DNA of 64,000 nucleotides from Diadema antillarum (taxonomy: Eukaryota). The stretch lies in NCBI RefSeq assembly GCF_040938485.1, contig NW_027271421.1:502567-566566 (forward strand). The letters run 5' to 3'. The position numbers and the translations under genes are program-made. This document shows positions 1-16,056 of the stretch, one piece after another (positions within the stretch are counted from its first letter, which is position 1; each line of letters starts with the position of its first letter). The notes beneath the pieces are model-generated. The model had not been told where the DNA came from. It ran no database searches and saw only the letters and a list, made by a program, of their open reading frames with translations.

Positions 1-380
1 TATCATTTAAAGAACAGGTGTAGAAAGTAATGTCAGGAATGACTAATCAGAACAATGTCCGTATTTCATGTCCGTATTACATGATTAAATCGCTCTGTTT
101 TATATTCATTAGGCATCTGTTGATCATTAGCGTCATTTGGACTACTTTTTTATCTTGTTTGGAGCGGGGATATTTGCCTACATTTTCTTCATATCTTTTC
201 TTCTTGTGAGTCGATAGTTATTTTGGATCCATCGACAGGCTGTATTGACATGCTGTATCTTAATCTATAGCTTCTATATATTTCATTACGAATGCACTGG
301 TCACACATGATCTAAACAGCTGTGACAAAAACAAATCTTTTTAAAAAAAAAAAATCTATATAAGTGATATAGGAACTGAC

Positions 381-540
381 CTGTGGTGAAAAACGAAAAA
401 ATGTTCAGGCGGTAGTTGATAGTTACGATTATGACGTCACCAACAGAAACCAATGGGACGCCACTATATTCCGCTGTCATCGCGGTTCCCATGGAGAAGC
501 TGCCACCATGAATAAAGACCATGACCGCCGAACCGTTCAT
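381..540 (-). CDS. Carboxylesterase copy A, exon 3 (VMVFIHGGSFSMGTA...VIIVTINYRLNIFSFFTTG). Remaining exons lie left of the window.
   Basis: VMVFIHGGxF ... VTINYRL is the oxyanion-hole region of carboxylesterase/cholinesterases. ATAAAG acceptor and GTCAGT donor. Collinear with paralog exon 3. Confidence 0.75.
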
Positions 541-1213
541 CTTTATCATTCAAAACAATATAATCATTCATTCAGATATTACTGTATATCTGTTGGAATT
601 AATATTCATAGCGCTGGAATTGATATCTATCACAGATAAATTATCATAAAGTAATTTCGAAGATACTAATCCTGATGGCTGATATTCTATGCTAAAAAAA
701 GATCAATGAATTTCCTCTCCATATTATGAAACAAGATTATCATGTTTAATATGCAATCAACAAAACACATTTGCCCTAATAACTATAGACAAATACTAGT
801 AAGTGGTTAAAGGGGTTAGCATTATATTATTACATTCTGTTCTATTGGATTATTATTATTATCATTATCATTATATTACAAAAGGAAACTCCGAAGCCAT
901 TCTATTTACTCTAAATTTATCCCACGAATTGTCATGTATATGCTTCTAAAAATAAAATAATGCCTGTTTCTTTTCATTTTACACTGTGTTAGAAATAATG
1001 CTGGATATTTGAACTGATCATTTTTCTGTTTTTATTGTCAGATTCAAATCAAATTGTGCTCAATTAGTTCTTTCAATTGACACTGTATTTCATTTATCTT
1101 GTTTATGTATGAAAAAGATATTCAGAAATAAAAGCAAAATCGATCAAATCAAACCCCATCGCTTTGCGGTAAAAAACTCTAGCGCAAAGACACTTGCCCT
1201 AGATGAATCCTAC

Positions 1214-1398
1214 CTTTGGATTAGGAGCAAACACGTTCAAATACAGACAGTCTTCTGACATCTTCTCGACAGGAGGGAAAAAGTCAAATACACCTTGCTG
1301 ACAGACAGCTTCAAATTCCGTAGCGTTCCTCTCTCCTTCCCATGACGTCATATTTGTGGGTGGGGCGAATCTTTCAGGAGGGGCCGCATAAGGCACCC
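1214..1398 (-). CDS. Carboxylesterase copy A, exon 2 (GVPYAAPPERFAPP...EDCLYLNVFAPNPK)
   Basis: Contains the type-B carboxylesterase N-terminal motifs (PYAxPPxGxxRF ... EDCLYLNV). Flanked by a TATAG acceptor and a GTAGG donor. 62 codons, phase 0 to 0. Confidence 0.8.
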
Positions 1399-2033
1399 CC
1401 TATATACGTTGGTAGAAATAAAACAAAAACACACAAAACACAACAAATACAATCAAACAAGGTCAGTTCTGGGGAAATGATGATGCCAATGTCTCCATAG
1501 AAGTTCAGGCTTCTGTGAAGAGGGTTTTACTGTGGTTACAACATGACTACATAAGTAAGCTTATTTTGTAACTGAAATACATCCCAAGCAATTTCACCTC
1601 ATTGGTAAACTTGTCTGATTTGATTCAGTGTTTTACCAGTCGACTCTATTAGGGGTTTTTTTTTGTTTTTGTTTTTTTTTTGGAAAATGGAGATAGAATC
1701 GAGTGGGTCGTAGGGCTGTCATTTTCTGTAAGTTAAGTCTTCTCTATCATTTACTGTCTATTCGGCATTCCAACACCTCACTCAACGCGCTGCAAGAATG
1801 TCCCCTAGTGTGCTAAGAAGGAAGAATGTATTCTAGTGTATAGGAAGTAAGGTTACGTATACATACTTATGAACCAAAGGTAAATATGTATAGATACTAG
1901 TGTACTAAGAGGTATAAAAACGTACAGATACTGCATGGTGTACTAAGAAATAAGAATGGTTACTAGTGTGCTCAGTGGAATTCAAATTGGCCTACGACTC
2001 CACTTGAAAAAGCTGGCCCTTTTTTCAACTCAC

Positions 2034-2195
2034 CAAGAAAACGTCGACATCTCGAGTCTTGTTGATGAACTTGTTTTCACTGAAAGTCACCGTCTTTCCT
2101 ACCAGAGTTCCTTCTTTCACCGTAACTCTCGGATTCTCAGCATTCAGTGGCTCGAAAATGGCAAAAATTGCCAACAAAGTCCACAAAAGCCGCAT
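2034..2195 (-). CDS. Carboxylesterase copy A, exon 1: start codon, signal peptide (MRLLWTLLAIFAIFEPLNA) and N-terminus
   Basis: The minus-strand ORF reads MRLLWTLLAIF...ENPRVTVKEGTLVGKTVTFSENKFINKTRDVDVFL. A GTGAGT donor follows the final L. The sequence is near-identical to the paralog exon at 12992-13153. Confidence 0.75.
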
Positions 2196-12991: not shown

Positions 12992-13156
12992 CAAGAAAAC
13001 GTCGACATCTCGAGTCTTGTTGATGAACCTGTTTTCACTGAAAGTCACCGTCTTTCCTACCAGAGTTCCTTCTTTCACCGTAACTCTCGGATTCTCAGCA
13101 TTCACTGGTGCGAAAATGGCAAAAATTGCCAGCAAAGTCCACAATAGCCTCATCAT
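12992..13156 (-). CDS. Carboxylesterase copy B, exon 1: ATG (two adjacent in-frame ATGs) plus signal peptide
   Basis: Reads M(M)RLLWTLLAIFAIFAPVNAENPRVTVKEGTLVGKTVTFSENRFINKTRDVDVFL, followed by a GTGAGT donor. The hydrophobic N-terminus fits a secretory signal. Confidence 0.8.
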
Positions 13157-13354
13157 TTGAGAGGAATTGCGCTTATCTTGTTTTCCTAATCAAAAGTCGC
13201 TGATTTTATATTCAGAGAGTCCAAGTAATGTGACTACGTGCAATCAGTTGTCCGTCTAGAATGAACGACAGCTATGCTTGCCTAGGATTGTCCTACACCC
13301 AAGAACTGTTTGTACAGGGCAAGATATTCAGACTTTGGTCACACTTTGCAAACG

Positions 13355-13400
13355 GACCAATCAATGAGCCAATTCCGAAATGACGTCAGTAAGTTTTAGC
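13355..13400 (-). promoter_or_regulatory. Putative core promoter of carboxylesterase copy B (CCAAT x2 plus TGACGTCA)
   Basis: The sequence ccaatcaatgagccaattccgaaatgacgtca matches the same motif order and spacing as upstream of copy A. Confidence 0.45.
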
Positions 13401-14394
13401 AGAGATATGAAGACATGGAAATGTAGTCCAACGTTATGATTATCTGAAGCAACTTAAAGCCACAAATGTCTTTAAACAGTTCGGAGTAAATTTGCAGCTT
13501 ATCAATTCCAAAAAGATACTGTAGTCGAATGAATAAGATTGTTCAAATAATTATGTCGAGTTTTTTTTTTTCAGTTCTGTATTACTGGACTTATTTCAGT
13601 CTGACCACAATTATGGTCAATTTAAGCAATGACCTTCTGCTTAACAAAGATTGTTTGAACAAAAAAAAAGAAAAAAAGAGGAATCACAAGAGTATGGAAA
13701 CAGTCGTGAGAATAGATATGTTTTGACAAAGGTCGAAGTCCGAAGATTGTTTATATACTGACAAAGCACAAAGCTATAGAGGAACTGAATAGGGTCCATT
13801 TATTATTGTCATCTTCTTTGATCACGCCACAGTTGTGAAAAATTTTGCAGGCTGTGTCCTTCTCTGCCTCAAAAGGCAAGCAGGAACATTACATGACTTT
13901 AATCATATGGGGACTCTTCATGTAACTGACATTACGAAACTAGCATTCATAGTTTTACTGACAACTCTCAAATGCGTCCCAAATGATGAAATCATTTATG
14001 ATGACTCATAATATGCCCTACCACGTGGAACCAGTGTATGTATTTTAATATATTCATTCAGGTCTTATATGCGTTGATTCTTGTAACTTTGATGAAGAGA
14101 TATTCCAACGGCAGGCATACAGCATAGGTGCTCATCGTAATGGTATCACAGTTTTATAAGGCTTTTACGATCTTGGCAAAGTAAAGTTCTGCGTATTTCC
14201 ACTTGTTTACATGGCTGTACTCCATAATGTGCTATGATGTACTTCACCATTTTGTTGTTCCATTATATAAATATTACCTTGATATTCAAAAGACAAAAAC
14301 CGTATTTATGTAAAATTATGAAAAGAAAATGTGATATCTGAAGTGGGAAAGACGTACTAAAAGGCTAATAAGCGTACATAGAATGGGTGTACGT

Positions 14395-14695
14395 CATGAG
14401 ACCGACGCCCAAGAGGTAGACAGCCCATGAGTTCAACTCTAAGCAAAAAGTGCCCACGAGACCGACACTTTAAGCCCCGTGTTGTAATGTCGAACTCGTT
14501 GGCTGTTTTTACCTAGTGCCGAATTCATTGGCCTTATTTGCGTAGCGTCAAACTCATGGGCTGTATGGTTCGTGGGCTGAATGACTCATGGACCTTATTT
14601 CAATGTCGAACTCGTGGGCTGTATGACTCATGGATGTCGGTCTCGAGGGATGACCCTCATTATAGAGTGAGTCCCTCAGTATAGAGAGAATGGAG
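14395..14695. mobile_element. Foldback/MITE-like insertion with internal degenerate ~40 bp tandem repeats (...tgtcgaactcgtgggctgtatg...). Present upstream of carboxylesterase copy B only.
   Basis: The ends are inverted (catgagaccgacgcc ... ggcgtcggtctcgag-like gtcggtctcgaggg). The homologous position upstream of copy A (about 3.5-3.7 kb) lacks it and carries a (TA)n tract instead. Confidence 0.6.
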
Positions 14696-16056
14696 GAAAG
14701 ACAGAGAGAAACAAAGCGAAAAGTAAAACACAACATATAAATTCACGTACTTTGGTATACATGCAAGAACACATATAGTACACACACCCATAGACAGTAC
14801 AGTACACATCATAGTAGTATTCAACTAAACTAGGCAAAGAGACTCAAAACATTAACAGCATCATACATAAACCCATATTCCATAATGTCTCCATTTGCCC
14901 GCATATACCCACACTCATTTCCTGTCTTATCTAAAGATGCACAGTATAATACTCATTTTTTTAATGAGAGTCCTTGCTTTGTGGGACTCAGACTGGCAAA
15001 GAAAAGAATCCCTGGCTATTGACCAACATGAAAAGACAGCAGCTATCATGCATAGTTGTGAAACAGTTGGTCGTAGAGATGTCTGGCGATACCCACAGCT
15101 GCTTGGAACTCTTCATCATCATCATCATCTTCTTAATCTTCTTCTTTTTTCTTGACGACGTTGTTGCTAATTGTTTGTTTTAAGGTGGTTTCAGCAATAT
15201 CTCTATAGTCCACAACAGTGTACAGTATATCACTTCATGGTAAAGTTTGAGAATTTTCGCGTGTGGTAGTGCAACAATGATATTTGTGGTAGTGTGATAT
15301 AATTTTAATGATAAAATGGGCCCCTTGTTTTCTAGGGCCCCATTTTTTCCCTCTCTCTTCTTTCTTTCAAACACATCTCCTGGTAGGTCGTGTATAACGT
15401 TTGTTGCCTTCTCGCAGAAAGCAGGAAAGAGCAGTACGGATTAAGCAACCCGTAGCTGTGTTGACATACACGGTTTTTAAGGAATTGACATCAGAACTGT
15501 GGGTGGGTTCATGCAAATAATGTAGAATTGAACTCGAATTGAAGTTGGCGTCCCTCATGCTCTGTCTGGCATCAGTACGAGCACCCTCTAGCGTTCAGTA
15601 AAAGCACAGTTTTCATTTCATTGTATCTGATTCTAGCGGCACAGACTATCCCACACGTACCATATCTCTACGGGATAGCGATCCCACAAGTCTTGTGTAT
15701 ACACGCTTATTTTTTTTTTATTACACTCTGTATCCTCTTTATACAGTCAAATAATGCAGCTCGAATTCTATACAGATCTGCACAATTCTACTTTCTTTAT
15801 TCGTACTAATGATACGTGTTGTTTTGTTAATTGAGTTCATTTGTGATTTTCAATAAAAATGAAATAAATGAATCGAATACGAAATTAGAAAAATATATTG
15901 TCAAATCAGCTCTGAAATACATAGACCTCCTGATCCAACAATAAGCCCCAATCTCAATGTTAGAGTTAAAAGGTTAAAGAAACATGAAATAAACGCAAAT
16001 TGATTGATATACGTACATCTCTAATTTCAGTATATGTGAAACCATCCAGGTAAACA

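Follow-up and report, generated by a model that had tools for sequence, protein, structure and literature searches.

The 64,000-nucleotide stretch of the Diadema antillarum genome analysed here (contig NW_027271421.1 of RefSeq assembly GCF_040938485.1, positions 502,567 to 566,566; hereafter, the window) contains the right-hand end of an array in which carboxylesterase genes stand in tandem. Within positions 1–15100 lie one complete gene, copy B, and the first three exons of a second, copy A. Judged by their sequences, both proteins are alpha/beta-hydrolases with a Ser-Glu-His triad and the conserved cysteines of three disulfides, and are better called cholinesterase-like carboxylesterases than proven cholinesterases. 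The two units come from one duplication of about 11 kb, which took in the gene and some 1.8–1.9 kb upstream of it and happened well before D. antillarum and Diadema setosum separated. Both copies have been kept intact under mainly purifying selection. The overall explanation, which we consider very likely, is that of an old, intact tandem pair of cholinesterase-like genes under purifying selection, in an array that has probably been reshuffled and in which copy A has probably been catalytically altered.

RefSeq already lists both genes under automatic 'cholinesterase-like' models, XP_071499740.1 (copy A) and XP_071499741.1 (copy B), with consecutive accessions on one contig of 1,264,214 bp. 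With exon boundaries set by reading frame and GT-AG rules on the open minus-strand segments, copy B was modelled as 10 exons, from 13156 to 5579, that encode 604 amino acids in an uninterrupted frame with canonical junctions throughout. Its product is exactly XP_071499741.1 ('cholinesterase-like [Diadema antillarum]'). The translation of copy A exons 1–3 is identical to the first 169 residues of XP_071499740.1, a full-length model of 602 amino acids.

The tandem unit and the age of the duplication

BLASTN comparison of the window with itself aligns 1–3953 with 11101–15050 on the same strand in five blocks (Table), at an offset of 10.94–11.27 kb, with identities of 70–83% and E-values as low as 0. 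Both genes are read from the minus strand, head to tail, and a spacer of 3383 bp separates the end of the B stop codon (5579) from the start codon of A, whose ATG is at 2195. The duplicated 5' flank measures 1758 bp in copy A and 1894 bp in copy B. A sequence-only reading of this DNA had proposed just such an arrangement, a unit of about 11 kb with about 2 kb of 5' flank, collinear over 1–4000 and 11110–15100 and in head-to-tail orientation on the minus strand, and the alignment bears it out. Its estimate of about 11 differences in the 186 nucleotides of exon 2 is exact (11/186, 94.1% identity). Exon 1 differs at 7/162 nucleotides and exon 3 at 12/160, and exons 1–3 are 92.5–95.7% identical. 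The statement that exons, introns and upstream region all align holds for the exons; introns and upstream sequence align only in blocks, intron 2 only in part. On the copy A side (1–3960) about 76% of non-coding positions can be aligned to the copy B side, and about a quarter of the non-coding DNA has passed beyond alignment. Where it does align, identity is 78.3% when substitutions only are counted (21.7% of sites differ; distance K = 0.256 over 2475 sites), so the exon figure of 94% is not representative of the whole unit. Homology ends sharply at 3953/15050, and a search of this boundary for flanking repeats that might hint at a mechanism found none.

When did this duplication occur? The 90% identity cluster around A and B contains two further D. 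antillarum proteins and three D. setosum proteins encoded on one chromosome. For the latter species three merged loci (L001+L003+L002) form a composite of 64.4 kb of chromosome OZ188199.1, in which the order is a PARP/VIT/VWA gene (minus strand), B (P0123), C (P0125), A (P0122) and a further COesterase gene for 576 amino acids. All esterase genes of this array (B-C-A-D) have one orientation and are alike in their ten-exon structure and in the lengths of their exons. Window positions 21294–5233 match the D. setosum flank and B, 7058–3777 match the 3' end of C and the C-A spacer, and 3779–14 match A. In the protein tree (neighbour-joining, split-based bootstrap) the A proteins of the two species group together with 100% support and the B proteins with 99.6%.

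Non-coding distances, all counted from substitutions only, agree with the tree. Within D. antillarum, A and B differ by K = 0.17–0.30 per module, against 0.03–0.05 between A and D. setosum A, 0.10–0.16 in the unique orthologous flank, and 0.07–0.14 between introns 4–9 of B and those of D. setosum B. By these distances the duplication is roughly 2–6 times older than the species split; a literature search of genome and mitogenome papers yielded no date for the divergence of the two species. The duplication had been called recent from the sequence of the window, a view that neither the A/B distance of about 0.26 nor the trees support.

The two species differ less at the A locus (3779–14, K = 0.04) than in the flank 12–19 kb away (21294–15374, 0.10–0.16). 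Candidate explanations are regional rate variation, constraint, or a different coalescence or conversion history.

The array has also changed in copy number between the congeners, with B-A in D. antillarum and B-C-A-D in D. setosum. A PARP4-like gene lies beyond B in both species (a PARP/VIT/VWA neighbour also flanks D. setosum B, and the flank is collinear to 21.3 kb), which makes B the right-hand end of the array, with its continuation to the left of the window. A tblastn search with copy B (E up to 10) found no esterase copy in the window beyond A and B.

Protein family and active centre

The assignment to the type-B carboxylesterases made from the sequence alone is confirmed by Pfam: COesterase (PF00135) matches over profile positions 2–515 of 515 with 442.2 bits for B and 436.3 bits for A (cut-off 27; E-value 3e-132). 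The best solved relatives are the acetyl- and butyrylcholinesterases (AChE and BChE; phmmer, E = 3e-97 to 1e-81). Torpedo AChE numbering is used below; it was taken from the alignment and checked against 21 known residues, and functional positions were tabulated across 110 aligned relatives, Torpedo AChE included.

The triad S200/E327/H440 is present in B, in A and in all aligned Diadema orthologs, and the three motifs in which it had been recognised in copy B (FGESAG, GFNKDEG and AAHGEEMTF) are all there and align to these residues. Copy B has glycine at G117-G118-G119, along with A201 and W233. Its oxyanion hole (118-119-201) is G-G-A, and that of copy A is G-S-A (G119S), as in D. setosum A. 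Cysteines 88/106, 266/277 and 414/552 of B align to Torpedo C67-C94, C254-C265 and C402-C521, and a seventh (603) lies in the tail; A retains all conserved cysteines in addition to its Ser, Glu and His.

What is missing is the choline-binding apparatus. The Cys67-Cys94 omega loop of B, QQGVFDFFPAPEKMSED, has 17 residues compared with 26 in Torpedo and contains no Trp, and Torpedo position 84 aligns to a gap. Among the 110 aligned sequences only five, Torpedo AChE included, have any Trp in this loop. At the peripheral and acyl-pocket sites B has Y70G, D72F, Y121S, W279D, a gap at F288, F290A, F330L, F331I and Y334A. The lack of Trp84 and of the peripheral-site residues in both copies is why we speak of cholinesterase-like carboxylesterases. 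Choline-ester hydrolysis by proteins of the A/B type is unproven and would be rather unlikely. With a canonical oxyanion hole and FGESAG, B is probably an active esterase, and its substrates, given an omega loop nine residues shorter and without Trp84 or the peripheral-site residues, are probably not choline esters.

At the other end of the molecule, the tail DISDTEKEWRESYDDWKTEMTAWQQAFEEYKNEPTCN carries three Trp spaced seven apart and a terminal Cys, all matched to the Torpedo T peptide by phmmer. A tail of this kind would permit oligomerisation. The weak AChE_tetra match is correctly placed, with residues 571–598 against profile positions 2–29 of 35. The N-terminus of B, MMRLLWTLLAIFAIFAPVNA followed by ENPR, has a mean Kyte-Doolittle hydropathy of 2.41 over residues 4–18 and is signal-peptide-like, as the sequence-only reading had it, and the sequons that it listed are found at NKT46, NMT71 and NAT80. 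In total there are six N-X-S/T sequons in B and seven in A, where the extra one is NGS118 in exon 3. Both proteins would thus be predicted to be secreted and N-glycosylated. The description of the locus as a detoxification or esterase gene cluster appears overstated, to go by the closest solved relatives, AChE and BChE, and the T-peptide-like tail.

The changes that set A apart lie around the catalytic Ser and are common to both species; many of the changes in B are specific to D. antillarum. Derived amino acids number 13 on A and 14 on B, with 43 unpolarised. Eleven of the 13 on A are shared with D. setosum A, among them E199V, Q225E and L330F. G119S is shared too, although its polarity is ambiguous, with Ser at this position in 15/110 relatives; E199V occurs in only 7/110. 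After the duplication, A would thus appear to have fixed G119S, E199V, Q225E and L330F around the catalytic Ser and to have conserved them since. Since these four changes have been conserved, A has probably become a paralog whose acyl-enzyme chemistry is slower or altered, or whose inhibitor sensitivity has changed. A more specific proposal, by analogy with known variants, is that the remodelled active centre of A serves a secreted, oligomeric scavenger or hydrolase of natural phosphorylating or carbamoylating toxins while B retains the ancestral chemistry. We think this improbable; if it were true, the targets of A might be, for example, algal or microbial toxins in the diet of this grazer.

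Selection, conversion and competing explanations

Rates of non-synonymous (dN) and synonymous (dS) substitution were obtained by the Nei-Gojobori method. For exons 1–3 of A and B, dS is 0.152 and dN 0.037, for a ratio (omega) of 0.24; the full-length D. setosum pair gives 0.234, 0.059 and 0.25. By exon, omega is 0.22 in exon 1, 0.09 in exon 2 and 0.62 in exon 3, and exceeds 1 in none. Positive selection on exon 3 was considered and rejected, as omega is 0.62 and the counts are tiny (8 non-synonymous against 4 synonymous). Since speciation A has changed more slowly than B, with 21 amino acid differences between the species compared with 42.

It had been proposed that amino acid differences cluster near the oxyanion-hole exon and that this reflects ongoing functional divergence. 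The exon 3 stretches quoted in support, GGGFSIGTAMTVEL and GGSFSMGTAMTAEY, are both present, and within exons 1–3 the clustering holds, with 7/12 differences in exon 3 (hand binomial estimate, P ~0.05). It does not extend to the full proteins, which differ at 70 positions: exons 6 (13/56), 7 (28/148) and 5 (6/40) are denser than exon 3 (7/53). The apparent concentration arises because only three exons of copy A are visible in the window. Nor does the divergence look ongoing, since omega is 0.24–0.25 and the active-site changes of A are old and conserved.

The view that the tandem duplication is recent and that its copies have only begun to diverge in function could draw on the high identity of exons 1–3, on their modest dS of 0.15, and on the seven differences in an exon that encodes part of the oxyanion hole. 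We find it very unlikely. The non-coding difference of 21.7%, with about a quarter unalignable, compares with an allelic heterozygosity of 2.52%; D. setosum has counterparts of both the A-type and the B-type gene, also in tandem; and the A-specific active-site changes are common to both species. Independent duplication in D. setosum is incompatible with the bootstrap values and the synteny. Are A and B then two haplotypes of one gene, placed side by side by the assembler? The annotated assembly does keep both haplotypes, according to its authors: it spans 1.75 Gb where the haploid genome has 703 Mb, 84.4% of its BUSCO genes are duplicated, and heterozygosity is 2.52% (PMC13511894). Yet the A/B non-coding distance is about ten times the heterozygosity, the same tandem arrangement is found in the independent, chromosome-level D. 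setosum assembly, and on a second D. antillarum contig, of 2.94 Mb, there is a separate pair of an A-like and a B-like gene under adjacent accessions (XP_071492944.1 and XP_071492945.1). This second pair, 97.3% and 96.6% identical in protein to A and B of the window and with an identical intron-9 read-through peptide, is itself probably the other haplotype. Retention of both haplotypes thus explains the second pair, not the difference between A and B, and the artefact, which the sequence-only reading had named as a possible refutation, has next to no chance of being correct. Its other possible refutation, a frameshift in one copy, fares little better. That one copy is a decaying pseudogene, the exon similarity being merely shared ancestry, could be argued from the replacement in A of two near-invariant residues (G119S, and E199V in FGESAG). 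Against this stand the uninterrupted 604-codon frame of B with its canonical splice junctions, the intact exons 1–3 of A and its 602-residue model, the retention in A of the triad and all conserved cysteines, and the stronger conservation of A between species (dN 0.013, omega 0.2), and we judge decay extremely unlikely.

Gene conversion is harder to set aside. In D. setosum C (composite 24508–35958) the exons are B-like (dS = 0.127 to B), whereas introns and upstream sequence are A-like (K 0.05–0.15 to A against 0.17–0.28 to B); about 2.9 kb has been inserted in its intron 1. For the 3' flank of D. antillarum B, the nearer counterpart is the one in D. setosum C (K 0.08–0.09), with D. setosum B at 0.14–0.15. 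Synonymous distances among B-type genes, 0.13–0.17, lie only a little below the 0.15–0.23 between A and B. Such conflicting affinities of exons, introns and flanks are expected from unequal crossing-over and gene conversion, by which the array seems to have kept being reshuffled, and they limit the precision of any single duplication date. Might exon-biased exchange, besides purifying selection, have maintained part of the exon identity and partly reset the apparent age? The dS of exons 1–3 (0.15) is below the flanking non-coding K (0.26), synonymous A/B differences in these exons number 16 in D. antillarum against 29 in D. setosum, the array is mosaic, and the A of this contig has B-type residues in exons 8–9 that are missing from the other A allele. 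The numbers are small, however (16 and 29 of ~117 sites), the diagnostic A/B amino acid differences hold up in every exon of both species, and low omega alone would suffice to explain the exon conservation. We treat a contribution from conversion as a serious possibility, but a doubtful one.

A related observation concerns the A proteins themselves. Those of this contig and of the other contig (P0124 and P0126 lie on the latter) differ by 2.7%, and either differs from D. setosum A by 3.3–3.5%, so that the three form a trichotomy. Of the differences between the two D. antillarum proteins 14/16 fall in exons 7–9, several of them B-type in the A of this contig, which hints at an A/B conversion tract or very old alleles.

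Several points weigh against the picture of an old tandem pair of secreted cholinesterase-like genes with a modified member. Orthologous non-coding K varies three-fold, from 0.04 at the A locus to 0.12 in the unique flank, which makes dating imprecise, and the synonymous distances are nearly star-like. The 5' half of B, from the upstream region to intron 3, lies at K = 0.17–0.27 from every D. setosum unit, its positional ortholog included, so the DNA itself does not establish B as a simple one-to-one ortholog. Exons 4–10 of copy A lie to the left of the window, and their properties are those of the RefSeq protein. AChE_tetra (PF08674) scores 16.5 bits for B and 17.4 for A (E = 0.004–0.007) against a cut-off of 25, and the putative signal peptide of B is predicted from composition only.

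Neighbouring features and comparison with known systems

The coordinates of the genes, flanks and aligned blocks are collected in the Table.

Table. Features of the esterase array and its neighbour in the window
Feature	Position	Strand	Basis or detail
Copy A exon 3, HGGSF (G119S), extra NGS sequon	381–540	-	translation equals XP_071499740.1
Copy A exon 2	1214–1399	-	GT-AG model, alignment to copy B
Copy A exon 1	2034–2195	-	translation equals XP_071499740.1
Copy A 5' flank, homologous to that of copy B	2196–3953	-	96% substitution identity to D. setosum A upstream
Copy B 3' flank (rest of B-A spacer)	3954–5578	-	no self-hits in window; closest match D. setosum C-A spacer
Copy B exon 10 and stop, T-peptide-like tail DISDTEKEWRESYDDWKTEMTAWQQAFEEYKNEPTCN	5579–5694	-	tblastn with P0001 C-terminus, E = 2e-21; acceptor ttccag
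Copy B exon 9, 182 nt, end of catalytic domain	6420–6601	-	GT-AG model
Copy B exon 8, 195 nt, AAHGEEMTF with catalytic His	6862–7056	-	His aligns to Torpedo H440
Copy B exon 7, 446 nt, GFNKDEG with catalytic Glu	8118–8563	-	Glu aligns to Torpedo E327
Copy B exon 6, 168 nt, second disulfide pair	8963–9130	-	GT-AG model and alignment
Copy B exon 5, 119 nt, FGESAG with catalytic Ser	9830–9948	-	aligns to Torpedo E199-S200-A201
Copy B exon 4, 78 nt	10996–11073	-	GT-AG boundaries, phase 1 at both ends
Copy B exon 3, 160 nt, oxyanion-hole HGGGF	11511–11670	-	Torpedo G117-G119 all Gly
Copy B exon 2, 186 nt, GVPYAAPP, NMT and NAT sequons, short omega loop Cys88-Cys106	12265–12450	-	cag/GGGGTG, AAG/gtagga
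Copy B exon 1, ATG at 13156, signal-peptide-like N-terminus MMRLLWTLLAIFAIFAPVNA	12992–13156	-	donor gtgagt
Copy B 5' flank, duplicated with the gene	13157–15050	-	collinear with 2196–3953, K ~0.23; homology ends at 15050
Aligned block 1	1–660 and 11101–11792	same strand	BLASTN self-comparison
Aligned block 2	652–778 and 11921–12047	same strand	BLASTN self-comparison
Aligned block 3	1194–1640 and 12245–12667	same strand	BLASTN self-comparison
Aligned block 4	1822–3402 and 12758–14326	same strand	BLASTN self-comparison
Aligned block 5	3636–3953 and 14735–15050	same strand	BLASTN self-comparison
PARP4-like exons (examples)	23018–23284, 29092–29460, 31315–31539, 32002–32229, 34122–34427	+	Pfam scan

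Two structural features of copy B lie in its introns. Read-through of the exon 9 donor (6343–6419, the start of intron 9) adds 26 codons, GIFFEGIITSLYYMLDLTGCVRESQL, before a stop that ends at 6343, and the added peptide is identical to the C-terminus of XP_071492945.1 on the other contig. It may represent a read-through isoform that lacks the T-peptide-like tail, comparable to AChE-R, or simply an error of annotation. Intron 7 contains a foldback element (7159–7728) with two 233-nucleotide arms that are 82% complementary and 104 nucleotides apart. Since the intron measures 1061 nucleotides, compared with 511 in D. setosum B, the element has probably been inserted, and it is probably similar to a miniature inverted-repeat transposable element.

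Head to head with copy B, on the plus strand at about 20000–45000, is a PARP4 (vault PARP)-like gene. From about 23 kb, PARP_reg, PARP and VIT exceed their Pfam cut-offs; VWA_3 (20.2 bits) and a second VIT (21.2 bits) fall below theirs. An open reading frame of 640 amino acids (41300–43222, plus strand) is built largely of 28-residue (84-nucleotide) repeats with a higher order of 88 and 148 residues (LELAEPVMMEEK...MAEPVMM), with tandem repeats at 41873–42958. A Pfam scan of it gave no match; it might belong to the PARP4-like gene as a large repetitive exon, or be a gene of its own. In the spacer that separates copy B from the PARP4-like gene, at 19432–19680, lie 5.1 copies of a 49-bp tandem repeat that are 96% identical. 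An Rfam scan of the whole window found no match.

The locus is an ordinary, already annotated example of gene-family expansion. Tandem expansion of carboxyl/cholinesterase genes is common, and its importance beyond the locus is limited. The only mildly unusual element is the conserved set G119S/E199V/Q225E of A, most of which lies outside the window. What the locus offers is a clean, datable esterase array that has gained or lost units between two congeneric urchins, with mosaic units, and in A a natural experiment on G119 and E199, positions central to insecticide resistance and bioscavenger engineering. Paralog counts from the annotated D. antillarum assembly are inflated about two-fold, as it holds both haplotypes.

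With the vertebrate enzymes (Torpedo californica AChE T form, PDB 6euc; human BChE) the pair shares the COesterase fold, S200/E327/H440 and the cysteines of the three disulfides. The G118/G119/A201 oxyanion hole is held in common with B, and the T (WAT) peptide aligns to the tails of A and B, although AChE_tetra scores below threshold. The differences are the 26-residue omega loop with Trp84, against 17 residues without Trp in B, and the peripheral-site and acyl-pocket residues that B replaces.

Closer relatives are found in the echinoderm 'cholinesterase-like / cholinesterase 1-like' family (Strongylocentrotus purpuratus cholinesterase 1, P0009), with 58–63% full-length identity. This family includes Diadema, Lytechinus, sea-star and holothurian paralogs, with a short, Trp-less loop (13–18 residues in most of the 110) and, in most echinoid members, the same T-peptide-like tail. 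The absence of Trp84 and the peripheral site across the echinoderm expansion means that the RefSeq label 'cholinesterase-like' is no proof of cholinergic function and should not be taken as such. Within the family A and B form a Diadema-specific clade (a cluster of at least 88% identity), with the combination G119S and E199V in the A lineage; the pair is one young twig of a large echinoderm expansion. Our literature search on sea-urchin cholinesterase or carboxylesterase gene families and on echinoderm T peptides found nothing specific.

The substitution at position 119 of A has well-studied parallels. Mosquito ace-1 G119S, human BChE G117H and blowfly E3 G137D lower kcat and confer carbamate or organophosphate insensitivity or organophosphate hydrolase activity, and in BChE the change E197Q, combined with G117H, reduces ageing further (PMC3462181, PMC4100338). 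At the homologous glycine (Torpedo 119) copy A carries Ser, and at 199, the Glu adjacent to the catalytic Ser, it carries Val. We take BChE E197 to be equivalent to Torpedo E199. By analogy, acylation and deacylation are probably altered in A. The resistance and engineered variants are recent alleles or mutants in true cholinesterases or insect esterases; those of copy A, by contrast, are ancient, have gone to fixation and been conserved, and they occur in a paralog without a choline site.

The organisation of the locus also has counterparts. The mammalian CES1/CES2 and insect alpha-esterase clusters are head-to-tail COesterase arrays with conserved exons, shaped by unequal crossing-over. Compared with these arrays, A and B stand closer to the cholinesterases and carry a T-peptide-like tail in place of an endoplasmic reticulum-retention signal.

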